Assembly: GCA_965200965.1 (NCBI GenBank)
Contig: OZ241744.1
Coordinates: forward strand, 2,592,001-2,656,000
Direction: 5' to 3'
Length of the DNA stretch: 64,000 nt
From: an uncultured Candidatus Binatia bacterium
Lineage (GTDB): Bacteria; Desulfobacterota; Binatia; Bin18
Below, piece by piece: positions 11,174 to 52,035 of the stretch. The translations under genes and the position numbers were made by a program. Position 1 is the first letter of the stretch, and the number at the start of each line of letters is the position of its first letter. Below the pieces are notes generated by a model. The model worked only from the letters and a program-made list of their open reading frames with translations, was not told the origin of the DNA and ran no database searches.

Positions 11174-11224
11174 GAGGACGAAGTGTGTCACCAGATCGCC
11201 AGGAAGGCGGCACGTTTCGTCCTT
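11174..11224. repeat. 51-bp palindromic element family 1, intergenic
   Basis: GAGG ACGAAG TGTGTCA CCAGATCGCCAG GAAGGCGGCACG TTTCGT CCTT. Confidence 0.85.
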
Positions 11225-11292
11225 GGTCTTGGCCTGAACAGAACTGGCAAGAGGTCTGAACCGGGATTCATCTGATTATGAGATTCCCGTGA

Positions 11293-12648
11293 TTACCTGC
11301 CCTGTCCCTGCTCCCCTTTTTCTTGAAGATCAGAGGTCTGTGCTGCTGCGTCACGGACGCGGATTTGGCCCGAGAGGAGCTTGGGCAGCAGGGTATCCCG
11401 GAGGGCGGCGAGGACAGCAGATTCTTGCATATTGACGACAGTCCGCCGATACAGAGGACGGACGGCGGTATCGAAAGCCAGCAGCAGGGGCCGAGGAGGA
11501 ATGAGTACCGGCAGAGGACGAAAGGTCTGTTTGCTAATCTCCGCAAAGGTCGAGCCGCCCGCAATGGCCTTGATGGCCTCCAGATGTTCAGCGCACCAGT
11601 GCAGGACATACCAATGGGAAAGCCGACCGGGACAAATCAGGGCGATGAAGCCTTGGTTGATCGCTGTGGGCACTTCGGTCATCGCCAAGTAGCCAATCGG
11701 AGCCCGAGAGGACAGCAGGACGGTTCCGACAGGGAGCAGCCCCGAGCTGATTTTTTCAAGCCCGGCGTCACTGATTTTGCGGGCGGTGTTCAGCAGGACG
11801 GGTGAGGTCAGCTTGGCGAGGTCCTTGGGTGTGGCCCAGTAATGGCGGGCGTCGTGCCAATAGGCGGGTTCTTTGGTACTTGGGGTTCCTCCCCCGACCG
11901 CCTGAGTCTCTTGACCGATTGTGGACAACTCCCACCCGGCGGGAATCGGCCCCAATGCCGAGTCTACAAAGCGATCGGGGAATAAGGCCGCTAGGGCCGG
12001 CTCCAGCCGGTCCAGATAGGCCCGGGCCACCAGCCATGCACTTCCCCCTGGAGACGCGCGTTGTGTGAGAGCGGCTTTGGCACGCACGGGGTCGAAATGG
12101 ACAAACCACGAGGTGAACAGGGCCCGGGCTATGTCGTCGAGGGTGGCGTTCATGCGCCGGTTCACCTCGATCTTGGCGTCAAGCGTACCGAGGATGTGGG
12201 CGATGGTGCGCTGCTCAGCCAGCGGCGGAACGCGGACCGGAAGGCTATAGAACGCTTCGCGGGTAGTCGAGGGGATCGCCGAGCCGCTGTCGAGGCCATT
12301 GATGTCATGGCTCAGCAATTCGTAGTAGGCCCAGCGAACATCAAATTGTACTCTTTGCTTCAGATAGAAAGCGGTGTCGATGACAAAGAACGGACCTGGG
12401 GTGTACTGAACGCCCAATGTCCCCTTACGTCCAACGATAACGCTGGGCCCAGCGTCCAGCATGTCAGTGTGCCACCCGATTGGGCCATTCGTCCCAAAAA
12501 CTGGATACTGCCCTTCTGCTGACCGATAACCGCGGAGTGCTTTGCCGTACTCAAGCGTTGCCAACTCGCCCCAGATACAGGAATGCCACGACCGGCCCGC
12601 CGTCTGATCTGTGCCTGTCACCACACGCTGCCGCGGCTCGCTCCGCAT
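11293..12648 (-). CDS. hsdS: Type I R-M specificity subunit (no hsdM/hsdR in window)
   Basis: Two TRDs with conserved spacers VPPLAEQRTIAHILGTLD, IPAGWE and LRDTLLPKLLSG. Confidence 0.93.
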   Translation of the reverse strand: MRSEPRQRVVTGTDQTAGRSWHSCIWGELATLEYGKALRGYRSAEGQYPVFGTNGPIGWHTDMLDAGPSVIVGRKGTLGVQYTPGPFFVIDTAFYLKQRVQFDVRWAYYELLSHDINGLDSGSAIPSTTREAFYSLPVRVPPLAEQRTIAHILGTLDAKIEVNRRMNATLDDIARALFTSWFVHFDPVRAKAALTQRASPGGSAWLVARAYLDRLEPALAALFPDRFVDSALGPIPAGWELSTIGQETQAVGGGTPSTKEPAYWHDARHYWATPKDLAKLTSPVLLNTARKISDAGLEKISSGLLPVGTVLLSSRAPIGYLAMTEVPTAINQGFIALICPGRLSHWYVLHWCAEHLEAIKAIAGGSTFAEISKQTFRPLPVLIPPRPLLLAFDTAVRPLYRRTVVNMQESAVLAALRDTLLPKLLSGQIRVRDAAAQTSDLQEKGEQGQGR

Positions 12649-13349
12649 CAGGAGTCCTGCGGGCCGTTTTCCTGGCGGGCCTCTTTGCGGGCCCGGCGAC
12701 CCAGGTAGCCGCCGTGGTGGAACTTGGCGTAGTCGGCCTTGGTGAAGCCCTTGCGGTCCATCAGCACCAGGGCCAGGGCGTCGCCAAGGGCCATCATGGC
12801 CGCGGTGCTTGACGAGGGGGTGAGGCCGAGCGAGCAGGCTTCTTTGACCGCGCCGATACTCAGCACCACATCGCTCTGGCGGGCTATGGGCGAGCGCGGG
12901 TGGCCGGTGATGGCGATCAGCGGCAGACTGTTGAGCGCTTTGGCCCGGCCTAGCATCTCGATGACTTCCCGCGTTTTGCCGCTGTTGGAGAAGATGATCA
13001 TCACGTCGTCGGGGCTGACGAGGCCGAGATCGCCGTGGGCGGCTTCTCCGGGGTGGAGAAAGCAGGCCGGCGTGCCGGTTGATGACAAGGTGGTGGCGGT
13101 TTTCAGGGCGATGATGCCGACCTTGCCCATGCCGGTGGTGATGACCTTGCCCTTGCAGTGCTGCAAAATCTGGACCGCACGCAGGAAATCGGCGGTGAGC
13201 GGAATGGCCCGGATGGCCTCGGCCTCGGCGGTCAGCACGGCCCGGGCCCGGACGAGTTCGGGGGGCAGGTCAAAAGCAGTGAACGTGTCATCAGATCGAC
13301 CGGAAGGCGACACATTCACTCCTCGCGGCTTGTTCTTGCGGGGCGGCAT
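12648..13349 (-). CDS. KpsF/GutQ-family SIS sugar-phosphate isomerase (no CBS domains)
   Basis: TTGMGK, HPGEAAHGDLG, SNSGKT, EAC.LGLTP and FHHGGYLG. Confidence 0.9.
   Translation of the reverse strand: MPPRKNKPRGVNVSPSGRSDDTFTAFDLPPELVRARAVLTAEAEAIRAIPLTADFLRAVQILQHCKGKVITTGMGKVGIIALKTATTLSSTGTPACFLHPGEAAHGDLGLVSPDDVMIIFSNSGKTREVIEMLGRAKALNSLPLIAITGHPRSPIARQSDVVLSIGAVKEACSLGLTPSSSTAAMMALGDALALVLMDRKGFTKADYAKFHHGGYLGRRARKEARQENGPQDS
13274..13324. repeat. 51-bp palindromic element family 1, in frame in the KpsF-like N-terminus
   Basis: Encodes RGVNVSPSGRSDDTFTAF; 41-bp core is the exact reverse complement of 15572-15612. Confidence 0.92.
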
Positions 13350-13351
13350 GG

Positions 13352-15466
13352 TCAGGTGTGGGCCTGTGCCGGCCGGCCGCCTTTGGTGCGCGATTTGCCT
13401 GGCCGTCGGGCGGTCTTTTTGGCCGCCCGACGGCTGGTGGCTGGGGTCGCCTCAGCGGCTCCGGTCGGGGCCGGCAGGCCGAGGCTGTGCTGCTCCAGGG
13501 CATGCAGATGGTTGCGCAACCGGGCGGCTTCTTCAAACTCCAGGGCGGCCGCGGCGTCCTGCATGGCCTGGCGGGTCTGGTCAATCTGTGCGGCCAACTG
13601 CTGGGCATGGTCCTGGCTGTCCTCCGCCACCGCGGGAATGTCTCCATAGTCGGCCTCGTAGACCCTGACCAGGGGCGAGGCCAGCGCTTTCTGAACGCTC
13701 TGCGGGGTGATCTTGTGCCGCGTGTTGTAGGCCGACTGAATCCGCCGCCGGCGCTGGGTCTCGTCAAGCGCCCGGCGCATGGAAACGGTGATCGTATCAG
13801 CATACATCAGGACCTGGCCGTTGACGTTCCGGGCCGCCCGGCCAATGGTCTGGATCAAGGATCGCTCGGAGCGCAGATAGCCCTCTTTGTCGGCGTCAAG
13901 AATCGCCACCAGAGATACCTCGGGGATATCCAGCCCTTCGCGCAGGAGGTTAATGCCGATCAATACGTCAAAGGTGCCGCAGCGCAGGGCGCGCAGGATT
14001 TCGACCCGCTCAATGGTGTCAATATCAGAGTGCAGATAACGGACTTTGACCCCGATGTCCTGGTAATAGTCGCTCAGGTCTTCGGCCAGCCGCTTGGTCA
14101 GGGTGGTGGCCATGACCCGCTCGCCCTGGTCTACCCGCTTGCGGATTTCTTCCAGCAGGTCGTCAACCTGGTTCCTGGCCGGGCGGACAATGACTTCGGG
14201 GTCAAGCAGGCCGGTCGGGCGGATCAATTGCTCGACAATGTGCCGCCGGCTCTTGTCCAGCTCATAGTCGCCGGGCGTGGCCGAGACATAGATGGCTTGG
14301 CCGACCTTGCGCTCAAACTCCTGAAAGCTGAGCGGGCGGTTATCAATAGCCGACGGCAGCCGAAAGCCGTATTCCACCAGGGTGGTCTTACGCGAGCGGT
14401 CGCCGCGGTACATGCCGCCGATCTGCGGAATGGTGACATGGCTCTCGTCAATGAACAGCAGGTAGTCATCAGGAAAATAATCGATCAGGGTGGAGGGCGG
14501 TTCGCCCGGCTGGCGGCCGTCCAGATGCCGGGAGTAGTTCTCAATGCCGGGGCAGAAGCCCATCTCGGCCAGCAGGGCCAAGTCGTAGCGGGTGCGTTGC
14601 TCCAGGCGTTGGGCTTCCAGTAGTCTGTTGTCGGCCCGCAGTTCCTCAAGCCGCTGATCGAGTTCGGCCTGGATCGCCGCGGCCGCGGTCCGGGTCCGGC
14701 TTGCACTGGTGACATAGTGGCTGGCCGGATAGATGGTGACTTTGTCCAGCCGGCGCGTGACCTTGCCGCGCAGCGGGTCAATTTCTGCCACTGACTCAAT
14801 GCTGTCGCCAAAGAACTCGATGCGGACGGCTCTGCTCTCTTCGTAGGCCGGGAAGACCTCAACCACATCGCCGCGCACCCGGAAGGTGCCGCGATGAAAG
14901 TCAAAATCGTTCCGCTGGTACTGGATATCGACCAGCTTGCGCAGTAGGGCATCACGGTCAACCTCGGTGTTTTCCTCGACAAACACGATCAGGTCAAAGT
15001 ACGACTCAGGCGATCCCAGGCCATAGATGCACGACACGCTGGCGACAATGATGGTGTCGCGGCGCTCCAACAGGGCCTTGGTGGCCGAGTGGCGCATTTT
15101 GTCGATCTCTTCGTTGATGGCCGCGTCTTTCTCAATATAGGTATCGCTCTGGGGGACATACGCCTCCGGCTGGTAGTAGTCGTAGTAGCTGACAAAATAG
15201 CGCACCGCGTTGTGGGGGAAGAGTTCGGCAAACTCGCTGTACAACTGGGCCGCCAGCGTCTTGTTGGGGGCGATGATGAGGGCCGGGCGGTTTGACCGGA
15301 CGATGACATGAGCCATTGAGAAGGTCTTGCCCGAGCCGGTCACGCCAAGCAGGACCTGGTGCCGGTGGGCCTGCCTGAGTCCCTCAAGCAGGGCGTCAAT
15401 CGCCTGGGGCTGGTCGCCCTGGGGCTGAAAATCCGAAACGATCTGAAATACGCCGTCCTGTCGCAT
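13352..15466 (-). CDS. uvrB: Excinuclease ABC subunit B
   Basis: [36 protein letters not shown] and C-terminal UVR domain. Confidence 0.99.
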
Positions 15467-15566: not shown

Positions 15567-15617
15567 GAGACGTGAATGTGTCGCCTTCCGGTCGATCTGA
15601 TGACACGTTCACGCCTT
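15567..15617. repeat. 51-bp palindromic element family 1, in the uvrB/cupredoxin divergent intergenic region
   Basis: GAGA CGTGAA TGTGTCGCCTTC CGGTCGATCTGA TGACACG TTCACG CCTT. Confidence 0.92.
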
Positions 15618-16036: not shown

Positions 16037-16042
16037 GGCCGC

Positions 16043-17038: not shown

Positions 17039-18519
17039 TCTGTCCTGGGGTCAGCATCGTCTACCGCATTGAGAAGCGGACGGTACTCCAGGGGGATCGG
17101 CTGGCGTACCCGCGCTGGGCCGCGCTGCCGGTCCGTGAGCGGGGCGTTGCTGTACGGTGTTCTGGGCCGGGCTGGGCTGGTATTGGCCGTGCGTTGCCAG
17201 GTGTCGCTCCGGGCCACCTCTCCGACCGGTACCCGGACTTTGACAAAGCGCGCGTCTCTGGTCAGAAAACCGCCCGGTTTTTCTCCAGCCTGGACACGGG
17301 CTTTTCCTTGGCTTGGGCCTTTGCCGCCGCCCTGCCCTTTGGGGCCGGCCCGGTTGGGGTCGGACTGGGGACCGGGCGTATTTCTGTCCGGTCGGTGTCG
17401 CTCCCCGGGGATATTCGGGTCGTCTCCTTGGGCGCGCTGGGTGGGGGCGTGTCGGGGCGACACACCCCTCGCCCCGTCTGCCTGTTGCTCAGCCGGGGGT
17501 TGCTGTTGGCCGTGCCGCTCTGTCTGCTCAAATTGAATACCGCCACCCTGTTGGGACGGCTTGTGGTTCTGATCGCCCTCTGACGGCCCGGCATCCCGCG
17601 GCTGTTGGCCGGCTTGGGTCCCCTCGGCCGCGGAGGAAGGTGTGTTGAGTCCCTCGGACTGTTTGGCGAGGTCCTGTTTCTGATTGCCGCCCGCCCCGTC
17701 ATTCCGGCCCTCAGCAACAAACAACTTCAGGTCAATTGGCAGCAGTTGCGGTAGCCGGATATCCAGTGTAATACGCTGCTCAGCCTCCTCAATCAGGCGT
17801 TCTTTCTGGCGGCGGCTCAGACCCGGCATCCTGAGTTGCTCAACCAGGGCGACAAGTTCGGTGCCGGCCGCTTGCTCCTGTGGCGTGTTGCCCTGAGCCG
17901 CCAGCTCACGCGTCTTTTTTTCGAGTTCGGCCAGGGACTCGGATGAGGGGTCGAGGCTGGGAGAGAGCCGTGCCGAAATGGGCTGAGGCTGAGGCCGCGG
18001 CCAGAACAGGCCCAGGGCGACGGCCACACACAGGCCGGACACCAGCAGGCCGATTGGCACACGCCTGTCCAGCTGGAAGGGTACCTCCCGTTCTGGAACA
18101 AAAAACGCCGCCCGTCTGGCCGTGTCACGCTGGAGAAAGAGCGCCATGTGGTCTGGAGGCTGAGCGAGGGTTACCAGGGTCAGAAAGCGCTCTTTGCTCA
18201 GCGTTTTTTCGTCCAGCAGCGCGGCCGCGGTCTCGTGGCTCATGTGGACGTGACGCAGGGTCTTCCAGAAGAAGAAAGCCCACCCTCCGAGGGGACCGAG
18301 CAACAGGGTGAGCGGCCAGGACAAGCTCACCAGCGTCAATGAACCGCCCAGCCCAAGTGCCAGCCCCAGGGGCAGAAAAAAGCTCAGGATGTTGAGATAG
18401 CGGTGCCGACGGAGGCGCTGAGCCGTCCTGTTGATAACGCCGGGAATCATGACCTCCTTGTGATCGCTGTTGTCACGATTCCCGGTGTGGGCCGGAGGCG
18501 GGCGGCTGGGGTCTTGCAC
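17035..18519 (-). CDS. Membrane protein with coiled-coil and G/Q/P-rich tail (MoxR-associated hypothetical)
   Basis: 3 TM-like segments, low-complexity tail, IPLEYR C-terminus; overlaps the MoxR start by 4 nt. Confidence 0.75.
   Translation of the reverse strand: MQDPSRPPPAHTGNRDNSDHKEVMIPGVINRTAQRLRRHRYLNILSFFLPLGLALGLGGSLTLVSLSWPLTLLLGPLGGWAFFFWKTLRHVHMSHETAAALLDEKTLSKERFLTLVTLAQPPDHMALFLQRDTARRAAFFVPEREVPFQLDRRVPIGLLVSGLCVAVALGLFWPRPQPQPISARLSPSLDPSSESLAELEKKTRELAAQGNTPQEQAAGTELVALVEQLRMPGLSRRQKERLIEEAEQRITLDIRLPQLLPIDLKLFVAEGRNDGAGGNQKQDLAKQSEGLNTPSSAAEGTQAGQQPRDAGPSEGDQNHKPSQQGGGIQFEQTERHGQQQPPAEQQADGARGVSPRHAPTQRAQGDDPNIPGERHRPDRNTPGPQSDPNRAGPKGQGGGKGPSQGKARVQAGEKPGGFLTRDARFVKVRVPVGEVARSDTWQRTANTSPARPRTPYSNAPLTDRQRGPARVRQPIPLEYRPLLNAVDDADPRTE
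17441..17470. repeat. Short REP-like hairpin inside the low-complexity CDS tail
   Basis: GTGGGGGCGTGTCG-GGG-CGACACACCCCTC. Confidence 0.4.
18437..18488. repeat. ~52-bp palindromic element family 2, in frame near the CDS 5' end
   Basis: ACGCCGGGAATCATGAC...GTCACGATTCCCGGTGT; encodes TGNRDNSDHKEVMIPG; 30 bp identical (inverted) to the 19707 copy. Confidence 0.9.
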
Positions 18520-19681: not shown

Positions 19682-21178
19682 ATGGGACGGAACACGGGCG
19701 CTTTCCACACCGGGAATCGTGACAACAGCGATCACACCCAACTCAGGATTCCCTGTGTCACCCATACAGCGCAACATGGCTCCATTCAGTTCCTGATTCT
19801 GGCTCCTGTTCTGACCCTTTGCCTTTTAGGGCTTATTGTCCGCAGCGCCAGTTCGGCCGTCGATCATCGGATTGAAAAGCAAAAGATCGCCGAACAACTC
19901 AGGCAGCGTTTGAGCGAGGTCTACAGCGACCCCACTCCGCCGCGGCTGAGCCGCCCCGCTCCGGAGCCGACGGCTGAGCCGCCCGCTGTGGCTGAGCCGG
20001 CCGCTGCTCAAGTGGCAGCTGCAACTGCCGAGCAGCCATCTCAGCCCCAATCCTTCCCGCTCCAGACCACGCACACGGTGCGCAAGAAGGATACCTTTGA
20101 GACCATACTGCGAGGCCAGGGGCTTGGCCGGAGCGCCGCCAGCACCTGGATTACGGCCTGGATTACGGCCGCCGGAAAAGAGAAGCAAGTCCGCAATCTG
20201 CAAATCGATCGGCGCTTCTCTTTTGTTTTTGATGAAGGTCCCGAAGAGCCGCTTCTGACCAGTCTGAGCTATGACCTCAGCGCCCTCTCACGGCTGACTC
20301 TTGAACGAAGGCCAGACGGCAACGTTACCTCCCGCCTCGAAGCGCTGCCGACCAGCCTGGTGTGGCGGGCGGTCTCTGGCCGGATTACCAGTAGTCTGTA
20401 CGAGGCGGCGGTAAACACCGCCGGGGTGCCCGACCGTATTGTTGACGAAATGATTGATCTGGGCTGGGATTTCGATTTCTCTTCCGACCTGAGGGCCGGC
20501 GACACCTTCAAGGTGATCTTTGAAGAATACCAGCGTGACGGCCAGCCGGTTCAATATGGGCGAGTCCTGGCGACTGAAATCGTCAATCAAGGCAAGTCCT
20601 CGACAGTCTTGTCACTTGACCAAACCGAGGGCTTCCTGCGCTATCCGCTGCGTTTCACCCGGATTTCGTCGGTGTTTACCAAGGCCAGGTTTCATCCTGT
20701 TCTCAAACGTCACCGGCCTCATAACGGCGTTGATTTTGCCGCCCCACGCGGTACGCCGGTACGGGCGGTGGCCAATGGGAGGGTCACCTGCGCCGGTTGG
20801 GAGGGCGGGTTTGGTCGGCTTGTCCGCATTGACCATCCTGGGGCGTACTCCACCGAGTACGCCCATCTGCATAGCATTGCCAAAGGGATCAGGGTTGGAG
20901 TGCGGGTCAAGCGTGGTCAAAAAATTGGCAGTGTAGGTTCGACCGGTTTGGCCACTGGACCGCATCTCCACTTCGGGCTGTTCAAGAATGGCAGATATGT
21001 AAATCCGTTGAGCGCAAACCTTCCCAGAGTTCCGAAAACCGATACGCGCAAACCGGACCCGGTCCGGGCCAAGCTGAAAAAAACGCTGACCGAATACCTG
21101 GCTCGGCTGGAGCCTGACCAGGCCTCAACTTTTGCCGCGGTAGAAACGACCAAGCCGCCAAGCCGGCCCCGCTCCTGA
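19682..21178 (+). CDS. M23 family peptidoglycan endopeptidase (MepM-like)
   Basis: HNGVDFAA, YAHL and STGLATGPHLHF; N-terminal TM; start uncertain. Confidence 0.92.
   Translation: MGRNTGAFHTGNRDNSDHTQLRIPCVTHTAQHGSIQFLILAPVLTLCLLGLIVRSASSAVDHRIEKQKIAEQLRQRLSEVYSDPTPPRLSRPAPEPTAEPPAVAEPAAAQVAAATAEQPSQPQSFPLQTTHTVRKKDTFETILRGQGLGRSAASTWITAWITAAGKEKQVRNLQIDRRFSFVFDEGPEEPLLTSLSYDLSALSRLTLERRPDGNVTSRLEALPTSLVWRAVSGRITSSLYEAAVNTAGVPDRIVDEMIDLGWDFDFSSDLRAGDTFKVIFEEYQRDGQPVQYGRVLATEIVNQGKSSTVLSLDQTEGFLRYPLRFTRISSVFTKARFHPVLKRHRPHNGVDFAAPRGTPVRAVANGRVTCAGWEGGFGRLVRIDHPGAYSTEYAHLHSIAKGIRVGVRVKRGQKIGSVGSTGLATGPHLHFGLFKNGRYVNPLSANLPRVPKTDTRKPDPVRAKLKKTLTEYLARLEPDQASTFAAVETTKPPSRPRS
19707..19758. repeat. 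~52-bp palindromic element family 2, in frame with the M23 ORF N-terminus
   Basis: ACACCGGGAATCGTGACAACAGCGATCACACCCAACTCAGGATTCCCTGTGT; encodes TGNRDNSDHTQLRIPC. Confidence 0.9.
20145..20170 (+). repeat. Exact 12-bp in-frame tandem duplication (WITA x2)
   Basis: CCTGGATTACGG twice. Confidence 0.85.
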
Positions 21179-33080: not shown

Positions 33081-34475
33081 CTACCCTTGCCAGTATTGCT
33101 GCACCCAGGCCAGGGCGGCTTCACGGCTCGCCAGCTTGCCTTCGAGCTGCGCGTCTTCAACCGCGGTCAGAATGTCTGTGAAGCGCGGTCCGGGGCGGAG
33201 GCCAAGGGCGATGAGATCACGGCCGGTCAGGAGACGCGGCGGCGCGAGTTGGACCGGCCCGAGGCGTTCTCGCTGCCGGCGGCAGAACTCGTATGGACGC
33301 AGGTCGCCGCTTGAGGCCAGGGCGTCGAGGCGCGCCAACTCCAACAGTTCTTCAATGCCGTCTTCGCGCAGAAACCGTTTGAGCTTGGCCGGACGCATAT
33401 TCGGGGCGCTGAGCAGCCGCAGATGGTTCTTGACCAGATAGGCCACCCGCTGCCACACTGCGCGTGAGCGTTTCAGCCGTTGACAGATGGCCACCGCCTG
33501 CTCTGCCCCCTGCTCACAGTGACCAGAAAACGTGGTGCGCTGTGGCTTGACCATGTCGTGCAGCAGAGCGCCAAGCGCCAAAGTTTCGCTCAGGACGGAA
33601 TGTGTCGCTTTCCCCTCGGTCTGTTGACACGTTTCGTCCTGTGGCCGCCCATCTGCCCATTTGTCCAGTTCGGCCAGCAGCAGCAGGGTATGGGTGAACA
33701 CATCCCCCTGTGGATGAAAATCGGGCGATTGCTCAACGCCGCGCAGCGCTTCGATTTCGGGCAGGATGACGGCCAGCAGGCCGGTCTCGGCCAGCAGTTG
33801 AAAACCGCGCTGGCCCCCGCCCTCGGTGAGAATCTTGACGACCTCGTCACCGATCCGTTCCCAGGCGATAGTGCTGATCCTTGGGGCGAGGGCTTGGAGG
33901 GCGGCGAAGGTCTGGGGGGCGAGGGCAAATCCCAGCCGGGCGGCAAACCGGACGGCGCGGATCAGGCGCAAGTGATCCTCGCGGAAACGGGCCACCGGAT
34001 CGCCAATGGCCCGGATCACCCGCTGGCTCAGGTCGTGTTGGCCGCCAACATAATCAATGACCTGCTCGGTAACGGTATCGTAGAACATGCCGTTGATGGT
34101 GAAATCGCGCCGCCGCGCGTCTTCCCGCGCATCAAGGCCGGAATGTGTCGCCTTCCCCTCGAGATGTTGACACGTTTCATCCTTGCTGAAGCGGACGCCG
34201 GTCGGGTGGCGTCCGTCAAGATAGCGGCCGTCGGCCCGAAAGGTCGCCACCTCTACTTTTGAGACCAGCACGACCCCGAACTGCACCCCAATTGGGACGG
34301 CCTGGGGAAACAGGCTCAGGACTTGGTCGACCCGGGCGCTGGTTGCCACATCAAAATCCTTGGCCTCCAGCCCCAGCAGGCGGTCGCGTACACAGCCCCC
34401 GGCCAGATAGGCGCTGAAACCGTGGGCGTGCAGCGTCTCAATAATCGTTCGAGCATGGCGTTCCTGGGGGCTCAC
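33081..34475 (-). CDS. cca: CCA tRNA nucleotidyltransferase with HD domain (two 17-aa element insertions)
   Basis: GGCVRD, KDFDVAT, EVATFR, RRDFTIN, EDHLRLIRAVRF and LLHD; GTG start inferred. Confidence 0.93.
   Translation of the reverse strand: MSPQERHARTIIETLHAHGFSAYLAGGCVRDRLLGLEAKDFDVATSARVDQVLSLFPQAVPIGVQFGVVLVSKVEVATFRADGRYLDGRHPTGVRFSKDETCQHLEGKATHSGLDAREDARRRDFTINGMFYDTVTEQVIDYVGGQHDLSQRVIRAIGDPVARFREDHLRLIRAVRFAARLGFALAPQTFAALQALAPRISTIAWERIGDEVVKILTEGGGQRGFQLLAETGLLAVILPEIEALRGVEQSPDFHPQGDVFTHTLLLLAELDKWADGRPQDETCQQTEGKATHSVLSETLALGALLHDMVKPQRTTFSGHCEQGAEQAVAICQRLKRSRAVWQRVAYLVKNHLRLLSAPNMRPAKLKRFLREDGIEELLELARLDALASSGDLRPYEFCRRQRERLGPVQLAPPRLLTGRDLIALGLRPGPRFTDILTAVEDAQLEGKLASREAALAWVQQYWQG
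33591..33641. repeat. 51-bp palindromic element family 1, in frame in the cca HD domain
   Basis: CAGG ACGGAA TGTGTCGCTTTC CCCTCGGTCTGT TGACACG TTTCGT CCTG; encodes QDETCQQTEGKATHSVL. Confidence 0.95.
34134..34184. repeat. 51-bp palindromic element family 1, in frame in the cca catalytic head
   Basis: AAGG CCGGAA TGTGTCGCCTTC CCCTCGAGATGT TGACACG TTTCAT CCTT; encodes KDETCQHLEGKATHSGL. Confidence 0.95.
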
Positions 34476-34547: not shown

Positions 34548-36014
34548 ATGAAGCTGACGGCAGAACAGGTGTGCGCCGCCACGCGCGGAACGCTGAGCTC
34601 CGGGCCGGCAGACACGCTGTTTCGTTCGGTGACAATTGACTCCCGCACGGCCAGCCAGGGGGCTTTGTTTGTACCGCTGCCCGGTGCCAGGACCGACGGC
34701 CATGCCTATCTTGGGGCGGCCGTTCGGCGGGGAGCCGCCGGCTTCCTGTACGCCCGCCAGGCCGTGGCCACGCTGCCAACCGGGGCAAGGGCGAAACGTG
34801 CCAACATCCCGGGGGGAAGGCGACACGTTCCGGCCTTGGTGAGCATTGGCGTATCAGACCCCCTGACCGCCCTCCAGGACCTCTCGGCCTGGCACCGCGC
34901 CAGACTGCCGGCCACGGTCGTCGGCATCGCCGGCAGTAACGGCAAGACGACCACCAAAGAATTGCTGGCCCAGGTGTGCGCCGCTCACCGGCCGAGCCTG
35001 GCCACCCCGGGCAACCTGAACAATCAGATCGGCCTGCCGCTCAGCCTGCTGCGGGCCGACGGTGACGAAGACATCCTGATCCTGGAGATGGGTACCAGCG
35101 GCCCCGGTGAGCTGAGCAGGCTCAGCCGCCTGGCCCGTCCGCATATCGGGGTCATCACCTCAATTGCCGAAGAGCATACCGAGATGCTGACCGACCTGTC
35201 CGGTGTGATCGAAGCCGAGACCGAGCTGCTCGCGGCTCTGCCCGGCGATGGGCTGGCAATTGTGCCTGGCGATGATGCCGCCCTGGTGGAGACCGTCCGG
35301 GGCCGGGCCGTGTGTCGGATTGTCACCTTTGGCGAACACGCGAGCAACGCCTTCCGGGCCGCTGACATCCGGGTTTCCCGGCAGGGAACGCAGTTCATGG
35401 CCCAGACCCCGCTTGGGGCCCGTCCGGTCCGCCTGGGTCTGCTGGGCAGTCATTTTGCCCTGGCCGCGCTGGTGGCGATTGCCGTTGCAACTGAGTGCGG
35501 TATTGGCCTGGACGCGGTATGCGAGACCCTGGGCACGGCCCGCGGCGCGCCGCGGCGCATGGCGGTCATTGCCGTGCCCGAGTGCGGCCTGACGATTCTT
35601 GACGACTGCTACAATGCTAATCCCGCCTCCGTGCAACAGGCCCTGCTGACCGCCGGGCAGGTGCGTACCGCGGGCGAGCGGCTGATCGTCGTGCTGGGCG
35701 ATATGCGGGAGTTGGGAGCGATCAGCCTGGTCCGCCACCAGGAAATGGGCGAGCTGGTGGCGCGCCTTGACCCCCACCCGGACCTGCTTGTTACGGTGGG
35801 ACAGGAAGCCCGGGCTATTGCCGACCAGGCCCGGGCCAAAGGGGTAGCGGTCCAGACCTTTGCTGCGGCGGATGAGGCCGCGGCTTTTCTCCACGACACC
35901 CTTCGGCCCTCTGCCGGCCGGCACTTGGTGCTGGTCAAAGGCTCGCGCGGAGTACAGCTTGAACGTGTCAGCCAAGCCCTGACCGGCCCCTGCCCGGATG
36001 AGAGCGAGGCGTGA
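34548..36014 (+). CDS. murF: UDP-MurNAc-tripeptide--D-Ala-D-Ala ligase
   Basis: IDSR, DGH, GSNGKTTTKE, NNQIGLP, DCYNANP, LGDMRELG and KGSRG. Confidence 0.96.
   Translation: MKLTAEQVCAATRGTLSSGPADTLFRSVTIDSRTASQGALFVPLPGARTDGHAYLGAAVRRGAAGFLYARQAVATLPTGARAKRANIPGGRRHVPALVSIGVSDPLTALQDLSAWHRARLPATVVGIAGSNGKTTTKELLAQVCAAHRPSLATPGNLNNQIGLPLSLLRADGDEDILILEMGTSGPGELSRLSRLARPHIGVITSIAEEHTEMLTDLSGVIEAETELLAALPGDGLAIVPGDDAALVETVRGRAVCRIVTFGEHASNAFRAADIRVSRQGTQFMAQTPLGARPVRLGLLGSHFALAALVAIAVATECGIGLDAVCETLGTARGAPRRMAVIAVPECGLTILDDCYNANPASVQQALLTAGQVRTAGERLIVVLGDMRELGAISLVRHQEMGELVARLDPHPDLLVTVGQEARAIADQARAKGVAVQTFAAADEAAAFLHDTLRPSAGRHLVLVKGSRGVQLERVSQALTGPCPDESEA
34787..34837. repeat. 51-bp palindromic element family 1, in frame in murF
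   Basis: AAGG GCGAAA CGTGCCA ACATCCCGGGGG GAAGGCGACACG TTCCGG CCTT; encodes RAKRANIPGGRRHVPAL. Confidence 0.93.
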
Positions 36015-38626: not shown

Positions 38627-38667
38627 CAGTCCTGTAGGTCGGCTTAGCCGGCAGGCGTAAGCCGGCG
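38627..38667 (+). repeat. GTAG-type REP-like hairpin, copy 1
   Basis: CAGTCCT GTAG GTCGGCTTAGCC GGCA GGCGTAAGCCGGC; 35/38 identical to the 42483 copy. Confidence 0.88.
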
Positions 38668-42466: not shown

Positions 42467-42572
42467 GGGTCAATATCCCTTCCAGTCCTGTAGGTCGGCG
42501 TAGCCGCCGGGCGTAAGCCGACACAATGAAAAGACTCCCAGCCTGCTGATAGCTACCGGAGATGCACGGCAT
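42459..42572 (-). pseudogene. Possible truncated gene start (MPCISG...) running into the REP-like hairpin
   Basis: ATG overlaps the 3' end of the upstream ORF; after ~16 codons it enters the hairpin and ends at 37 aa. Confidence 0.4.
42483..42522 (+). repeat. GTAG-type REP-like hairpin, copy 2
   Basis: CAGTCCT GTAG GTCGGCGTAGCC GCCG GGCGTAAGCCGAC. Confidence 0.88.
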
Positions 42573-42893: not shown

Positions 42894-45800
42894 TCAGAGG
42901 CGGATGTCGGCGTCGGGGTGGCCGGCGGCCAGGGCGTTGAGCCAGGCGAGGCACAGCTCGCGCGAGCGATAGCGGCCCCAGGTGGCGGTTTCCTGGCGTT
43001 CGACGATGGGGAAGGTGGCGTAGATGTAGCGCACATCGTTGCGGTCGGTGAGGCCGTAGAGGTGGAAGAAGACGGCGTCGAGCTTGGCCCGCAGGTGCAG
43101 CCGGCGGTCTTCGTCCCACACGAACGGCGGCTTGACCCGCCCGGCGGCATCGACATGGCCGAGGTCGCGGGCAAACGGGGCCATGTCGTGGGCGGTGTAG
43201 GTCAGCTCCAGCACAGCTTCCCGCACAATCTCGCCGGCCGTCTTGGTACCGAAACGAACGGTGCCGTAGGTTGCGGGTGGCATGACGGGGAGCTGTTCAA
43301 CGATGTAGTAATTTAAACTGGTGCTATGAATTTTCTGACGGGTGATGAAGTCGAAGATCGTCGAGTTGAAGTTTGCTATCAGCAGCCATTCCGTGCGTTC
43401 GGAAGTTTCCGGGTCCGCTATGAGGAGCGGGGCTTTGTTCCCCAAACCGACAAAAGGGACTGCGGCAGCGATCATTGTTCAAGCGTCGCTGGCGCGGGCG
43501 ATATCCCTAAATGTGACTGTCCATCCCGATCGGTCCGGCAACTTCACTTTGTCGGCGAGAACCCAATACTGTGGTATAGGCATGAAATTCGGGTCAGCCT
43601 TCTTATCCGGTGCAATCCCCCCGCTCAGGGCCGGATTGTGAAGGTTTTGCTCGTTTACTTTGACCGACGCGGCTCGGTGGTCAAACTGATGAATCATCCG
43701 ACCGACATACAGCGGCACCCACTCCCCCGACGGGCTACGAAAGCGGTTGCCGCCGACCGGATACGCGCCTTCTTGCTCCTCCAGTTCTTCGAGCGTGCGG
43801 AACAGGTGGGAGTCGTTGGTCATGTCAAACATGCGGGTGTATTTTACCGGCCACGCCTTGAGCTCCCGGCCCGCTGAACGGTCTACCAGGACGGGCAGAC
43901 GGCGGTAGATGGCCGTGGTCAGTTCGGCGTCCCGGCGGGTGCGGAAGATGGGCGCTGTGCCGGTGTTGGGGTTGACGCTGGCGAAGTCCTCCGAAGCCAG
44001 CGGAAAGCGACGGGAGGCGTCGTTCAGTTCTGACACGTCCTGGAGGAAGAACGCGCACTGGGCCGGAGCGTCGGACGGCGAGCGTCCGGTGACAAAGGCG
44101 CAGAACTTGAACCGCGAGTCCACATCCGGGAAGAAGGGCGGCGCGGTGTAGCGCGTGCGGCGGTTCTCAAAATCGTACAGCGTACGCAGCCGGCCTTCGG
44201 TTGCGACTGAACGGAAGAAGGGGGCCGCGGTCTTGTCTGAGGCAATACCGGACGGGACGAGCAGGCCGACGAGGCCGTGTGGCTTGACCAGGGCCAGGGC
44301 GCGTTCGACAAACAGCGCGTACAGGTTCACATCGCCCCTGGACAGCAGGGGGTAGTCGCCGCCGGTCCGGGCCATGCGGGCGGTAGACTCGGCCCGGGCG
44401 TTGGCCCGCTCAAACGCGCCGGCCAGGGGGTCGCCGTCGTCCTGCAAGGCGGCGATCATGCGCTTGCGGTCGTCGGCGCGCTGGGCGTGGGCAATGGCCG
44501 GCCGGCGGGCCGCAAACCATTCGACCTGCTGGAGCTTGATGCGGTCCCAGGGCGGGTTGCCGATCACGGCGTCAAAGCCGCCCTGGCGTTCGGGCCGCTG
44601 CCAGTCTGACCACACCCCGGGAAAGGCGACCTGCCAGTGCAGAAATCCCTCTTCGGCGATGAGGTCCCGCGCGCGTGCCAGGAGGGCGGCAAAGCTGGCG
44701 CTGGCTGGGTGATCGTCCCGCGGCTCGGTGGCTTCAAGGGCGATCTGGATCGGGTCGCCAAGCCGGCCCTCAGTAAAGGCCCGGACCGCGGCCCGCTCGT
44801 CCTTGGCCTTCAGGTTCAGCCAGTCCAGGGCGTGGCTCAGGGACAGAAAGGATGCGAGCGGGGCGGTGCTGGCCTGCATGTCGTCGAAGATGTGGGCGGA
44901 GCGGTGGGCCTCGGCAATCTCGGCGTCGGTCAGGGCCTCAATCTCCTGCATCTGGGCGGCGGCCTGGGTGGCCTCGTGAAGTTTGGGGGTCAGGTACAGG
45001 GCACTCTCGCCGGTCATCACCCGGTCAATGCCCTGGGCCACCCAGCAGCCGAACAGGCTGTTGCCGCAGCGCAGATGATGGTCCAGGAAGCTGAGCGGTG
45101 CGCCGACGGTAAAGGTGTGCAGCCACAGCGACACCTTGGCCAACTCGACCGCCATCGGGTTTTTGTCTACCCCGTAGACGCAACGCTTGAGCACCATGCG
45201 GCGGACAATATGGCGGTCGTCCAGTTGCTCAGGGTCAATGCTCCAGCCGTGTTCCTCGGCGTTGGCGGTGATGCGCTGGCGAATGGCCTCAATGCGGTCG
45301 CCGAGCCGGCCCTCTTCAGACGGATCGTCCTCCTCGTCGGCCATGGCCGCAATCACCCGGTCGGCCAGATAGTCCACGAGGCTGACCAGAAAATGCCCGG
45401 AGCCCATCGCCGGGTCACATACCTTGAGCTCCAACAACTGCTCTGCGCTGCGGCCCCTGACCAGCGGCTCAAGCGTCTGGGTCAGGATCAGGTTGACGAG
45501 CGTATCCGGGGTGTAATAGCTGCCCGAGCCTTTGCGGGCGAACACATTGGGCCGGACGAGAATCTGCCCGCCGTCGCGCACAATCTCGTGCTCAAGCAGC
45601 CGCTCATAGATCGAGCCGAGCTGCTGCACACTCAGGTCACGGTAGTTGATGTAACGCCGGCCTTTCACCTTCCGGTCGAGGGCACGTTCACTCCTTTCAA
45701 ACGACAGGGTGTCAATCACATCGGCCATAAGCTGATCGCCCAGCCGGATACGGGCCAGCAGCGGCGTGTGCTCCCGGTCGAACAGCCCGCCGTTATAGGC

Positions 45801-46865
45801 CGGCAGGCCGATTGAGGCGTCGCCCCGGTCAAGGGCCCGGCACAGGTCGTCAAGGGCTGACCAGTAGCGGGCCGCGCTGGCGGAGAAAGTATCGTCCCGG
45901 TCCTTGCGCCGGCGCACATCTTCGCGCACCCGCTCGCGCAGGCCGTAGTCGTCGTAGCGCGTGTCGCGCACCGGCAGCAGGCTGCGGTCTTCGGCGTACA
46001 GAATGAACAGCAGGCGGTAGAGCAGGGTCAGGGCGGCGTCGCGCACTTCAGACAGGGGCGTGTCTGGCGCGGCGGCGTCGGCAATGGCCCGGGCCAGCTT
46101 GGGAAAAACCTGCTTGAAGACCAGCTCGGACAGGTCGGCGGCCACCCGCTCTTCATAGAACCGTCCCTGGTCAAGCGCGCGCTGGTGCAGGCTGGGCCGG
46201 TCCGCGGTGGCCACAAAAGCGTCCCGCCCGAAGAAGAGGGCAAACAGCTTGAGGCAGTGCCGGTCGGGGCGGAGCGCCGCGGTCAGGTCAAGCTCAAAGA
46301 ACTGCTCGGACACCGACCGCGCGCCGGCATAATACAGCCGCCATTTTGCGCCGTTGGTGAGGATGCCCCAGCGGAGCCGGCCGTCGGTCAGGTCGTCTGC
46401 CCGCCGCAGATAGCGCAGCATCTGGGTTGACGGCGCGGTCCGCTCGCCGGCCCGGTCCGAGCGGCGGTCGAGGGGCCGTTGCCAGCGCTTGGCCTCCAGC
46501 ACCGCCAAGCCGAATTGATAGCGCTGCCATTCCTGGCCGAAGCCGTTGGCCCGGTCCTTGGCCGCGGCGTCGGCGAACAGCAGGCCGTCGGGCACATCGT
46601 CCCGGCCCTGGGCGCTGAGGTTCTGCTGTCGCAGGCTGGCCGTCCAGCCCAGCCGTTCCAGCACCGGCCAGATCAGATCGTCTTCGGTCTGGCTCTCGTT
46701 GGGGCTCTGGCCGGTCGGAAAGCGCTCAACGACCGCCTGCAACTCGCCGGCCAGGGCGTCGAGCCGGGCGTCCTCAAACGCCTGCCAGTCATCGAGCCGG
46801 GCCACCGACCCGGTGAGAAAATCCCAGGCGAACAGGCTCCCCCGAACAATGCCTTCAATACTCAT
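42894..46865 (-). pseudogene. Type IIG (Eco57I-like) fused REase-MTase, split by in-frame TGA at 43479-43481
   Basis: PDGLLF..LEAK nuclease, GSYYTP, DPAMGSGHFL and GNPPW; ORF 42894-43475 continues in the same frame (GCT TGA ACA ATG). Confidence 0.85.
45665..45696. repeat. Partial family 1 element, in frame in the type IIG gene
   Basis: TCACCTTCCGGTCGA-GGGCACGTTCACTCCTT vs TCGCCTTCCGGTCGATCTGATGACACGTTCACGCCTT; encodes RSERALDRKV. Confidence 0.7.
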
Positions 46866-48061: not shown

Positions 48062-48200
48062 TGATTTTCCTTTATTTCTGTCCTGTTTCCTGGCAAAGCA
48101 ATAGAATATACCAGAAAATAAATACTTTCCAGCATTATAGTCTGAGCACGAGTATTTTTTATTTTAGCTCATTTCCTTGATATTTCTCCTTTATTGACAC
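48062..48200 (-). promoter_or_regulatory. AT-rich region upstream of fic; candidate island promoter/boundary
   Basis: Abrupt AT richness; TATAAT on the minus strand at 48134-48139; no clear -35. Confidence 0.4.
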
Positions 48201-48319
48201 TGTGTTCTTGGCGATCACCCTTCATTACGGCCCCGCCATCTCCCCCCTTCCTGGCATCTTGTCATGGTCACTGAGGCACAGGTTGATTCGGCCCCCTGTC
48301 CGGCTGCAAGGGAGCGGTC

Positions 48320-48551
48320 ATGCTGAGGGCAGAGAAGCGCTTGTTTCCGCTGGCTGGGAGACCGCGTTATCCACGCCCAGTATGAGCACTGGGGGCTGGG
48401 CGCGGTTGTCGAAGAGATGACCTCAAGCCTTGCCGGCGGCACCTGTCTGGTGCGCGTCCTGTTTGAAGACGGCCAGCAGCGGACCTTTAGTAACGACCTG
48501 GATAGTGAGCAGTGCTGCTACTGCTTTGGCCTGCGGCGCGAGCATCTTTGA
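48320..48551 (+). pseudogene. Small DUF3553-like (SH3-like) gene with +1 frameshift near 48356-48359
   Basis: MLRAEKRLFPLAG, then next frame DRVIHAQYEHWGLGAVVEE...VRVLFEDG...CCYCFG; GGAG SD; 232 nt = 3n+1. Confidence 0.55.
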
Positions 48552-48572
48552 CGCTGCCCGCCCGGCTCGCGC

Positions 48573-48782
48573 TCAGGACTTGGACGGCTGCGATTCCTGC
48601 GCGTCTAAAGGCTCGCCCTTGGGGCCGGTGGGCCGGATAGTGCACTGCTCCAGCGTCTGGAGGGTATGCGGATTCACCCACGGCAGGCCCATAGCGCAGG
48701 GCTTGGCCATACCCTCTTCTTCGACTTCCTCATAGTGCGGGAAGCCGGCCTTGGCAAAATTGATCATCAGACGTTTTCCCAT
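48573..48782 (-). CDS. Small hypothetical protein
   Basis: MGKRLMINFAKAGFPHYEEVEEEGMAKPC... 69-aa ORF divergent from ileS. Confidence 0.5.
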   Translation of the reverse strand: MGKRLMINFAKAGFPHYEEVEEEGMAKPCAMGLPWVNPHTLQTLEQCTIRPTGPKGEPLDAQESQPSKS

Positions 48783-48865
48783 GCCGCGTGTCCTTTGTGT
48801 GTTTGCCCGCCGTCCGTCCAGTCTATACAATACGGTCAGTCTGGCGAGACAAGGACAACACCACG

Positions 48866-51800
48866 ATGAAACCGGTTGCTGAGAATGTCAAGTTCCCCGA
48901 GGTCGAGCTGGAAGTCCTCCAATTCTGGGACGAGGCCAAGGTTTTTGAAAACACGCTGAAAAAAACCCGGGATCAGCAGCCGTTCATTTTTTATGACGGC
49001 CCGCCGTTTGCCACCGGCCTGCCGCACTATGGCCATCTGCTGGCCGGCACGATCAAAGACATCATTCCCCGCTTCTGGACCATGCGTGGCCGCTATGTGG
49101 ACCGGCGTTTCGGCTGGGACTGTCACGGCCTGCCGGTCGAAATGGAAATTGAGCAAGCCCTGGATTTGCACGGCAAAAGCGAGATTGAGCGCTTTGGGGT
49201 AGCCAGGTTTAACGCCGAGTGCCGCAAAATTGTGCTGCGCTATACCGAAGAGTGGGAAAAGACCGTGCGCCGGACCGGGCGCTGGGTTGATTTTCGGAAC
49301 GACTACCGGACGATGGACCTGTCGTTCATGGAAACGGTATGGTGGGCGCTCCGACAGATGTGGGACAAAGACCTGGTCTACGAGGGCTCGAAGGTCCTGC
49401 CCTTCTCAACCCGGCTGGGAACCGTGCTGTCAAACTTTGAGGCCAACCTGAACTACAAAGATGTCCAGGACCCGACCGTCACCGTCCGTTTTGCCGCGGA
49501 CGACGAAGAAAAGACATCGTTCCTCGCCTGGACCACCACGCCGTGGACCCTGCCCAGCAATCTGGCCCTGGCTGTCGGCCCGGACATTGCGTATGTCAAG
49601 GTCCGAGACCATGAGGACGGCACCCATTACATTCTGGCCGAGGCGCGGCTCGCAACCTATTTCCCCAAGCCCGGGACCTGCACCCTTGTCCAGCGCTATA
49701 CCGGGCGGGACTTGGTCGGCCGGGGCTATCGACCCGTATTCCCGTATTTTGCCGAGCACAAACAGCGCGCCGCCTTCCGTCTGATCGCTGCCGATTATGT
49801 CACCACCGAAGACGGAACCGGCATTGTCCACATTGCCCCGGCTTTTGGCGAGGACGACTTCCTGGCCTGTCAGCAGGCCGGCATTGCGTTGGTCAATCCG
49901 GTTGACGACGAGGGAAAGTTTACCGCCCAAGTCCCTGACTTCGCCGGCCTGCACGTCAAAGAGGCCGACGCCAGGATCATCGCCCATCTCAAACGCGACA
50001 AGCAGCTCGTCCACCAGGGCACAATTTTTCACAGCTACCCCTACTGCTGGCGGAGCGACACCCCGCTCATCTACCGGGCGGTGAATACCTGGTTTGTCCG
50101 GGTAGAAGCCTTCCGCGATCGGCTGGTGGCCAATAATCAGCGCACGACCTGGGTGCCAGAGCACCTGCGCGATGGCCGCTTTGGCAAGTGGCTGGAGAAC
50201 GCCCGCGACTGGGCAATCAGCCGCAACCGCTATTGGGGCACGCCGCTGCCGATCTGGAAGAGCGAGGACGGCAGCGAAGTCGTGTGTATCGGCAGCGTTG
50301 AGGAGTTGGCCCAAAGAGCCGGCGTGCGGGTCACTGACCTGCACCGCGAGTATGTCGATGCTCTGAGCTTTCCGTCCACAACCGGGGGCCTGATGCGCCG
50401 TGTCCCCCAGGTGTTTGACTGCTGGTTCGAAAGCGGCTCCATGCCCTACGCCCAGTTGCACTACCCGTTTGACAATGCCGAGCGTTTTTCGCGCACCTTT
50501 CCCGCCGACTTCATTGCCGAGGGGCTCGATCAGACCCGGGGCTGGTTCTATACCCTGATGGTGGTGGCCTCAGCCCTGTTTGACAAACCAGCCTTCCACA
50601 ACGTTGTCGTCAACGGCCTGGTCCTGGCCGAAGACGGCAAAAAAATGAGCAAACGGCTCAAAAACTATCCCGAACCTGACGAGATCATGGCCCAACACGG
50701 CGCGGACGCCATGCGGCTCTATCTCATCAACTCGCCCCTGGTCCGGGCTGAGGAGCTGCGGTTCAGCGAGCACGGCGTGCGCGATACCGTGCGCCGGCTG
50801 CTGCTGCCGTGGTGGAACGCATATAAGTTTTTTGTCACCTACGCCCTGGTTGACGGCTGGAAGCCCGAGCGCGTCCCGGCTGAAGCGTCCCCGAACATCC
50901 TGGACCGCTGGATCGTGTCCCGGCAGCAAACCCTGATCCGGCGCGTCAACGCCGAGATGGAAGCCTACCGGCTGTATACGGTGGTGCCGGCCCTGCTCGA
51001 CTTTCTGAACGAGCTGACCAACTGGTATGTGCGCCTGGGCCGCCGCCGCTTCTGGGCCGGTACCCCGGCGGACAAAAACTTCGCCTGCCGCAGCCTGCAC
51101 CAGGTCTTAGTAACCTTCTCAAAGCTGATGGCCCCGTTTACGCCGTTTCTGGCCGATGCGGTCTACCGCAACCTGAGCACCCTCCAGCCGGAGCGGGCCG
51201 CGGCCAGCGTCCATCTTGAAGACTTCCCCAGCTATGACCCCGCCGCGGTTGATGCCGGCCTTGAGGACGCGGTGGCCCGGATGCAGCGCGTTATCCTGCT
51301 GGGCCGCAGCCGGCGCAATGAGCGCAAGGTCAAGGTCCGCATCCCCCTCCAAACGCTCACCGTTCTCCATCGCCAGGAGTCCGTGCTGAATGACTTGAAA
51401 CCGCTCGAAGGCTATATCCGTGAAGAACTGAACGTCAAAACCCTTGCCTACAGTACAGCCGAAGACGAAAAAGTAGAGTTGCGCGCCAAACCCAACCCGC
51501 AGTTGCTCGGCCCGCGTTTCGGCAGGGCCTTCGGCCAGGTCCGCGAGCAACTGGCGACCCTCAGCCGGGAGCAGATGTTGCGCCTGGAAGCCGGCCAGTC
51601 CTTGCAGTTCAGCGGCCACGCCTTTCAGCCGGATGAGGTCCACATCCTGCGCCAAGCCAAGGATGGCGTCCCCGATGTCCACTCCGATCGGTTTATCTCT
51701 ATTGAGTTTCCGTGCGAGTTGAACGACGAGCTGCTCAGCGAGGGTCTGGCCCGCGAAGTGGTCCACCTGATTCAACACATGCGCAAAGAGGCCGGCTATC

Positions 51801-51997
51801 AGGTCGAAGACCGTATTGCCGTGACCTACCAGGCTGCTCCGCAACTGGCAAGCGCTATTGGTCGCCACCTGAGCTATATCCAGCAGGAAACCCTGGCTCG
51901 GTCGCTCGCCCGGGCGCAGCCGACCGGCGACCGGGTTGAAAGTGGGGATATCGACGGGGCCGCAATTACGCTTGGAGTCCAGCGCGAAGAGGAGTGA
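48866..51997 (+). CDS. ileS: Isoleucine--tRNA ligase, type 2 (archaeal/eukaryote-like)
   Basis: DGPPFATGLPHYGH, WTTTPWTLP, DWAISRNRYWG and KMSKR; long C-terminus without Zn finger. Confidence 0.97.
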   Translation: MKPVAENVKFPEVELEVLQFWDEAKVFENTLKKTRDQQPFIFYDGPPFATGLPHYGHLLAGTIKDIIPRFWTMRGRYVDRRFGWDCHGLPVEMEIEQALDLHGKSEIERFGVARFNAECRKIVLRYTEEWEKTVRRTGRWVDFRNDYRTMDLSFMETVWWALRQMWDKDLVYEGSKVLPFSTRLGTVLSNFEANLNYKDVQDPTVTVRFAADDEEKTSFLAWTTTPWTLPSNLALAVGPDIAYVKVRDHEDGTHYILAEARLATYFPKPGTCTLVQRYTGRDLVGRGYRPVFPYFAEHKQRAAFRLIAADYVTTEDGTGIVHIAPAFGEDDFLACQQAGIALVNPVDDEGKFTAQVPDFAGLHVKEADARIIAHLKRDKQLVHQGTIFHSYPYCWRSDTPLIYRAVNTWFVRVEAFRDRLVANNQRTTWVPEHLRDGRFGKWLENARDWAISRNRYWGTPLPIWKSEDGSEVVCIGSVEELAQRAGVRVTDLHREYVDALSFPSTTGGLMRRVPQVFDCWFESGSMPYAQLHYPFDNAERFSRTFPADFIAEGLDQTRGWFYTLMVVASALFDKPAFHNVVVNGLVLAEDGKKMSKRLKNYPEPDEIMAQHGADAMRLYLINSPLVRAEELRFSEHGVRDTVRRLLLPWWNAYKFFVTYALVDGWKPERVPAEASPNILDRWIVSRQQTLIRRVNAEMEAYRLYTVVPALLDFLNELTNWYVRLGRRRFWAGTPADKNFACRSLHQVLVTFSKLMAPFTPFLADAVYRNLSTLQPERAAASVHLEDFPSYDPAAVDAGLEDAVARMQRVILLGRSRRNERKVKVRIPLQTLTVLHRQESVLNDLKPLEGYIREELNVKTLAYSTAEDEKVELRAKPNPQLLGPRFGRAFGQVREQLATLSREQMLRLEAGQSLQFSGHAFQPDEVHILRQAKDGVPDVHSDRFISIEFPCELNDELLSEGLAREVVHLIQHMRKEAGYQVEDRIAVTYQAAPQLASAIGRHLSYIQQETLARSLARAQPTGDRVESGDIDGAAITLGVQREEE

Positions 51998-52035
51998 ACA
52001 CGTCATCAGATCGAAAGGTGACATGTTCACTCCTT
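51989..52035. repeat. Family 1 element (47 bp) overlapping the ileS stop codon
   Basis: GAGG AGTGAA CACGTCA TCAGATCG AAAGGTGACATG TTCACT CCTT. Confidence 0.85.

Follow-up and report, generated by a model that had tools for sequence, protein, structure and literature searches.

How a hairpin of only 51 bp comes to lie within the reading frames of core enzymes, twice in the gene of the CCA-adding enzyme, and what moves it from place to place are the questions raised by a 64,000-nucleotide stretch (the window) of the 3.62-Mb genome of an uncultured Binatia bacterium, hereafter G000. The first-pass annotation of the window had named eight related hairpins, six of them exactly 51 bp long, and all eight were recovered, including the six full 51-bp copies. 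Two are intergenic, one at 11174..11224 (minus strand) between genes for a DNA methylase and for a type I specificity subunit, and one at 15567..15617 (plus strand) between uvrB and a cupredoxin gene, a site that is empty in the sister genome G007. A kpsF-like SIS-domain gene (12648..13349, minus strand) carries one insert at 13274..13324 (minus), which follows residue 9 of the KpsF/GutQ-like protein without breaking the frame, and murF (34548..36014, plus strand, TIGR01143 above cut-off) carries one at 34787..34837 (minus), in frame in the N-terminal domain; both sites are empty in G007. Two further copies reside on the plus strand in cca, which encodes a class II tRNA nucleotidyltransferase (33081..34475, minus strand, start according to our hexamer gene caller), namely insert 1 at 34134..34184, at the C-terminal end of the flexible loop preceding motif B (DxxRRD), and insert 2 at 33591..33641, before the residues SETLAL in the HD-domain region. 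Of the five copies that the annotation had placed in frame within coding sequences, four gave clean 17-residue gaps upon alignment (both cca inserts against orthologues, murF and kpsF against G007, the murF insert also being a gap versus 1GG4), while the fifth, a partial copy at 45651..45696 (plus) in a type IIG restriction-modification gene (43479..46865, minus strand), adds a net 7 codons. By itself this partial copy only reaches E=10, yet it is missing from G007. The remaining copy, 47 bp at 51989..52035 (minus), is not merely intergenic: ileS (48866..51997, plus strand) ends within it, takes its stop codon from it and has its last 7 residues turned into 2.

A profile built from the eight window copies (nhmmer) returned 107 matches at E<=0.01 across G000 and none in the reversed genome. 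The 111 matches at E<=0.05 form the working set used here, so the further genomic copies expected of such a family do exist. Ninety-two of them are 51-bp, ungapped, full-length and high-scoring, the remainder being diverged or partial. The element consists of 16-bp arms flanking a 19-nt loop, with arm positions 5-8 variable yet complementary across the 92 copies. In a covariation analysis of 45 copies, 89% of the cells pair, with 96 two-sided changes, a level that none of 500 shuffles attained. Because the reversed genome is free of matches and stem pairing exceeds that of all 500 shuffles, a chance origin of the family is excluded. The terminal bases are asymmetric whatever the direction of the loop (A..C 25, G..T 31, A..T 18 and G..C 4 of 92). 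Copies differ in their state of decay, as copy 34134 folds no better than its shuffles (z about 0) and copy 11174 folds with z=-4.3. Identical copies are absent from G000, nearest neighbours differing at at least 2 positions, wherefore the burst of activity may be over by now. A scan of the window against Rfam at gathering score gave no match, and literature searches, whose coverage excluded subscription journals and supplements, found no published description of the family. The annotation had not recognised this small protein-invading family either, and we found no described MITE or REP family that it matches.

Other repeats were seen alongside. A second hairpin family, a sister to this one with units of 45-53 bp, similar ends and a different core, is represented in the window at 5085-5129 and elsewhere on G000:C1 at 948867, 966482, 1489727, 2441952, 3412319 and 3603791; in G000 the family is intergenic, and versions occur near or in cca of the relatives G003-G006. 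The window further holds a 54-bp inverted repeat pair 1.2 kb apart around a minus-strand ORF (18437-18490 and 19705-19758) as well as a 21-bp tandem coding repeat and a 232-bp duplicated pair (53884-53988 and 52688-53349), and two large arrays of repeats of about 2.4 kb, 85-95% alike, lie at G000:C1:271749-305588 and 1131704-1165221.

Insertion could be followed by comparison with G007, of which 1.2 of 3.6 Mb were used, at 90.5% identity to G000. Among 57 G000 sites with both flanks in G007, an exactly empty site is found at 25 and a span of 51 bp at 5, the others showing small or large local differences; conversely, for at least 5 of the G007 copies the G000 site is exactly empty. Protein alignments of mid-gene sites between both genomes show a gap of exactly 17 residues in 15 of 27 cases, murF and kpsF included. 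The insertion ends are base-precise at the 25 empty sites, and a target duplication of 1-6 bp was found neither in the copy flanks nor at the empty sites, in agreement with the annotation, nor was microhomology seen at the junctions. A target site duplication of 2-6 bp, one of 1 bp and a 2-bp serine-recombinase overlap are each unsupported by these junctions. The target shows a weak, two-sided palindromic preference: at the 25 verified empty sites, C occupies position -4 in 30 of 50 half-sites and position -1 in 28 of 50, against a background of 31%. Contigs of five sequencing runs, one of them with thin cover, from four studies gave no joint skipping the 51 bp among the matches listed.

According to our own hexamer-based gene calls for G000, 42 of the 111 copies lie inside ORFs, another 10 end at most 6 codons from a stop and 14 include the stop itself, while 3 run across a 5' end and 42 are intergenic, whereby gene 3' ends hold 24 copies; genic copies occur in both orientations. 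Pfam matches were obtained for 41 of 55 scanned host proteins, including MurJ, DnaX, Cas3 (three inserts), D-Ala-D-Ala carboxypeptidase, HsdM, a UvrD-like helicase and ThrRS. One copy lies near a CRISPR array, whose repeat is unrelated to the element. The length of 51 bp is divisible by three and a mean of 57% of a copy's six frames are stop-free, which would let many genic insertions survive. With genes defined from G007 and rows of inexact junction left out, there are 17 exactly empty sites that lie over 15 codons away from the C-terminus, and in G000 not one of the 17 inserts there contains a stop, where 10.2 stop-free inserts would be expected (P=7e-5). When rows of uncertain junction with a gap divisible by three are included, 20 of 22 mid-gene sites are open, the 2 exceptions being of uncertain phase. 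Clean insertions within 15 codons of the C-terminus, in contrast, bring a stop in 4 of 4 cases (Fisher P=2e-4). Partial deletions of the element within genes, of 42 bp, 30 bp and 21 bp, keep the frame. Stop avoidance and in-frame deletions together indicate that frame and codons matter, and the difference between stop-free mid-gene sites and stop-bringing C-terminal sites suggests that the inserts are probably translated rather than spliced out, likely as tolerated 17-residue protein loops.

The gene cca is the only PF01743 gene of G000, and 32-38 of the 51 tRNA genes lack a genomic CCA, which is why the doubly inserted CCA enzyme is very likely needed by the cell. Insert 1 is common to G000 and G007, and at the site of insert 2, G007 holds a 30-bp in-frame remnant. 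Comparison with the Bacillus enzyme (1MIV) maps insert 1 just N-terminal of motif B, and the loop required for A-addition is located between BxA and DxxRRD in the account given by PMC2910056; judged by sequence position, insert 1 is in this loop. The relative G003 carries a different, 45-bp hairpin in cca at the same nucleotide as insert 1, so that the A-addition loop appears to have taken up extra residues twice, independently. In an AlphaFold model of the cca product the overall fold is confident (pTM 0.85), and the two inserts come out as loops of low confidence, at residues 101-111 (insert 1) and 280-292 (insert 2). Apart from the inserts, the G000 gene (33081-34475) has a 7-residue in-frame deletion following the HD motif, and a 4-residue deletion common to G000 and G007 is found where the relative G004 has an 18-residue insertion.

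Copies that lie close to each other also resemble each other. Within pairs separated by less than 10 kb, 9-10 of 49 positions are mismatched, and within pairs farther apart about 15, and homologous flanks were not found among the close pairs. For 20 of the 92 copies the nearest relative lies within 20 kb, with 3.2 expected and a maximum of 11 in 2000 shuffles. The closest of the 92 to the murF copy at 34787 is the cca copy at 34134, 650 bp away with 6 of 49 mismatches, and the murF copy is absent from G007 while this cca copy remains in place. The murF copy is thus likely a daughter of the cca copy, and the element likely copies to nearby sites, although gene conversion between neighbours could add to the signal of local similarity. 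G007 has a subfamily of its own, with 5 copies within 7.5 kb, three members of which are nested in another copy's loop, following position 22. These nested elements (L323:2461, 3160 and 7333) share one loop position, and two of them have a private arm change in common with their inner loops opposite.

In 3 of 32 orthologous pairs in relatives, which are not independent of each other, the loop is inverted in place, and it is due to this inversion that the asymmetry of the ends is kept regardless of loop direction. Template switching has been reported to invert loops and to repair stems (PMC8794818), and because it repairs stems, the covariation alone is no proof of selection on the hairpin. The copies are moreover in raw excess within 300 kb of the origin in three genomes (43 of 111, 18 of 36 and 29 of 61). 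Once clusters are merged, this excess is largely gone (12, 8, 9, 5, 5 and 8 per distance bin), and a targeting of the origin, strong in the raw counts, is left weak. In G000 about 220 kb separate the GC-skew minimum from dnaA (C1:2481861 and 2702441).

Beyond the sister genome, 77 of 80 element-like GTDB loci among the matches listed are titled Binatia or Binatota, the other 3 belonging to one genome titled Thermodesulfobacteriota, and element DNA is present in sponge metagenomes. A covariance model matches 14 of 61 genomes: besides G000 itself, it picks up 6 of 7 congeners and, within the same family, 7 of 10 members of a single further genus, and it finds no match in the 31 other genera searched. 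Copies in relatives measure 49-57 bp (46 of 80 at 54 bp, 16 of 80 at 55 bp) and are mostly intergenic; 50 of 80 have a length divisible by three and only 2 of 80 score as in frame in genes, in a scan with a pattern biased towards perfect arms, some of which contain stop codons, and a coding model trained on G000. The 17-codon length that the annotation took for a family trait therefore holds in this lineage and not among the relatives. A length evolved to be a multiple of three finds no support in these counts and is better read, as far as sequences tell, as a lucky enabler than as design. Since relatives' copies are mostly intergenic, it is in this lineage that genes have been heavily colonised.

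The annotation had proposed mobilisation by a transposase acting in trans; none was found in G000, and none linked to the element in relatives. An HUH/RAYT or IS transposase with matching ends was found neither in G000 nor at the loci inspected in relatives. Profile searches of G000 returned no PF01797, PF02371, PF01548, PF00239, PF01609, PF00665, PF13358, PF12762 or PF04480, and of the recombinase and small-nuclease families searched it only has a UvrC-sized GIY-YIG protein and two tyrosine recombinases. Among 122 host and neighbour proteins, from fetched regions covering a subset of the 111 sites, none matches a transposase at E<=1e-8. The Y2_Tnp profile gave no matches, its positive controls being likewise silent. 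Y1/RAYT enzymes, absent from G000, are present in 38 of 61 genomes, and their 30 loci inspected in relatives show no link to the element, the RAYT-like genes there being flanked by GTAG REPs, by other repeats or by none. IS110 (none in G000, present in 2 of 10 genomes) and HNH genes show no link to the element either, and resolvases are missing from G000. DDE_Tnp_1 occurs in 11 of 18 genomes and in neither G000 nor G007, from which rve, DDE_3 and IS1595 are absent as well; arm-like ends were found at none of the 30 DDE_Tnp_1 and 15 IS1595 loci of relatives, the best 15-30 per family. The sole reverse transcriptase of G000 is a split UG13b-like defence enzyme with no element nearby (L464:1048-2421, that is G000:C1:2404925-2406298), interrupted by a stop codon; its G007 counterpart is open with 428 aa.

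Small GIY-YIG and DUF559 genes of relatives were rejected as movers as well, being flanked by repeats of their own. Inverted hairpin repeats surround each of the GIY-YIG genes (L406-L411, L423, L435) in a REP-RAYT-like manner, and in the relative G047 the element sits within a DUF559-associated repeat, where we read it as a passenger; the embedded 54-55-bp elements there lie in repeats on both sides of small DUF559 genes (L453, L456). An autonomous long form did not emerge, since 18 metagenome matches to the left half lack the right arm and 9 viral matches lack full ends, and these are attributed to chance. GTAG-type REP-like repeats are present in the window at 38627-38664 and 42483-42520, with 23 motif matches in a genome that has no RAYT match, and similar repeats flank a RAYT gene in the relative G006 (L182).

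In the account that we favour, and that we hold to be rather probable as a whole, a 51-bp stem-loop would have entered dozens of new sites, leaving no target duplication, after the split from the sister species, its copies likely reaching sites within about 10 kb. The hairpin would likely be handled in single-stranded form by a trans-acting enzyme that has since been lost or escapes recognition, which is favoured by ends that are exact and duplication-free. Insertion would be blunt, at a weak palindromic target with C at -1 and -4 on each side, and the donor would stay in place even within a gene, as the cca/murF pair suggests. The insert would then persist as a near-neutral translated loop, stop-bringing insertions surviving only in the last few codons, and the loop would later likely be inverted between the arms by replication template switching, which may also help to keep the arms complementary. 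Our best guess for the mover, a tentative one, is an HUH-type enzyme of the IS200/IS605 or RAYT-like kind. HUH transposases usually leave a leading- or lagging-strand bias and have a one-sided target of 4-5 nt. The asymmetric ends show no strand bias (24 leading versus 32 lagging) and the target is two-sided, both of which weaken the guess.

The main rival does without a dedicated enzyme and has host replication or repair copy the hairpin nearby, by template switching or break capture. It would explain why G000 and G007 went through independent bursts while both lack every transposase family searched, it agrees with the local spread, and the loop inversions show template switching acting on these very hairpins. 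We nevertheless regard it as unlikely, as base-precise ends at 25 sites, a conserved length and a conserved loop motif suggest recognition by a specific protein, and template switches normally need the microhomology that the junctions do not show. A classical MITE, whose 16-bp arms a DDE transposase would read as terminal inverted repeats, would suit the symmetric target bias expected of a dimeric enzyme and the many DDE transposases of relatives. The missing target duplication, the free variation of arm positions 5-8 and the lack of arm-like ends at the DDE loci inspected make this improbable.

Two further readings concern what the hairpin does rather than how it moves. Hairpins kept by the host for regulation, as terminators, mRNA stabilisers or binding sites near the origin, would account for the copies at gene 3' ends and the raw origin excess, but the sites are lineage-specific and decaying, tolerance accounts for the C-terminal excess and the origin signal is mostly lost on merging clusters, so that we consider such a function quite improbable. 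That the hairpin is cut out of the transcript or skipped by the translating ribosome, leaving the proteins native, might be supposed from its strong fold with exact ends and from the insert in a catalytically important loop of cca; splicing or bypass is contradicted by the stop avoidance at all 17 mid-gene sites and by the frame-keeping deletions, and both orientations occur, which renders it highly improbable.

In-frame palindromes in proteins are a published phenomenon, and the annotation rightly compared the element with the Rickettsia palindromic elements (RPE), which invade proteins in frame and are mostly longer. RPE are likewise described as palindromic, non-autonomous and dispersed in a host-associated bacterium, with no known transposase and about half of the copies inserted in frame in conserved genes, and an RPE-bearing enzyme keeps its activity (PMC2229807, PMC10969869). 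By their description they differ in length (105-146 bp in PMC2229807 versus 51 bp), in their Rickettsia hosts, unrelated to Binatia, and in encoding one conserved peptide, whereas the present element is read in five or six frames into unrelated peptides and shows blunt junctions at its empty sites as well as local spread, inverted loops and nested copies. GTAG and CGTC REPs and REPINs are also short stem-loops, some of them intragenic and some supplying stops (PMC3733652, PMC8049555), with intragenic REPs listed in Additional file 3 of PMC3733652, and the CGTC type is described there as likewise without known transposase. Unlike GTAG REPs and REPINs, our element has no terminal GTAG tag in the column counts of 92 copies and no RAYT link. 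The CGTC type, as described, has terminal CGTC/TGTC, a CCA tail and head-to-head dimers, whereas here single units carry TGTC/CGTC only within the arm; the stem and loop of 16 bp and 19 nt contrast with 8-9 bp and 4-5 nt in REPs (PMC3733652), and 38% of the copies are mid-gene.

MITEs such as Correia, ERIC, RUP and YPAL share terminal inverted repeats, hairpin transcripts and occasional in-frame fusions (table 1 of PMC2229807), but compared with them the element is at most half as large, GC-rich and devoid of TA ends and target duplication, and a partner IS was found at none of the loci inspected. Non-autonomous HUH elements of the IS200/IS605 type resemble it in lacking target duplication and in a subterminal hairpin, and differ from it by its weak two-sided target and the absence of lagging-strand bias. 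Palindromic repeats fused into protein genes are likewise known, in other lineages, from Methanocaldococcus (Suyama 2005) and Wolbachia (WPE), both as cited in PMC2229807 and PMC3733652. New as far as our searches reach are the family itself, its insertion rules, the local spread, the loop inversion and the insertion into the CCA loop.

How RPE-like and CGTC-like palindromes move has been an outstanding question since their description, and the present family offers rules to it: the ends are exact, vacant sites are seen in a sister genome, the target is biased, hops would reach about 10 kb and the donor would be retained, all in a nearly transposase-free genome that narrows the candidates for the mover. 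It is possible, if doubtful, that the family stands for a new class of minimal replicator, a 51-nt hairpin making short hops in cis, with blunt and base-exact junctions, through an enzyme outside the known transposase families or through host proteins alone, whose length, divisible by three in one lineage, would have opened about 40 proteins to it, the loop for A-addition in the single CCA enzyme among them. The family also amounts to a natural insertion-scanning experiment on about 40 proteins, among them CCA, MurF, MurJ, DnaX, DacB and, three times, Cas3.
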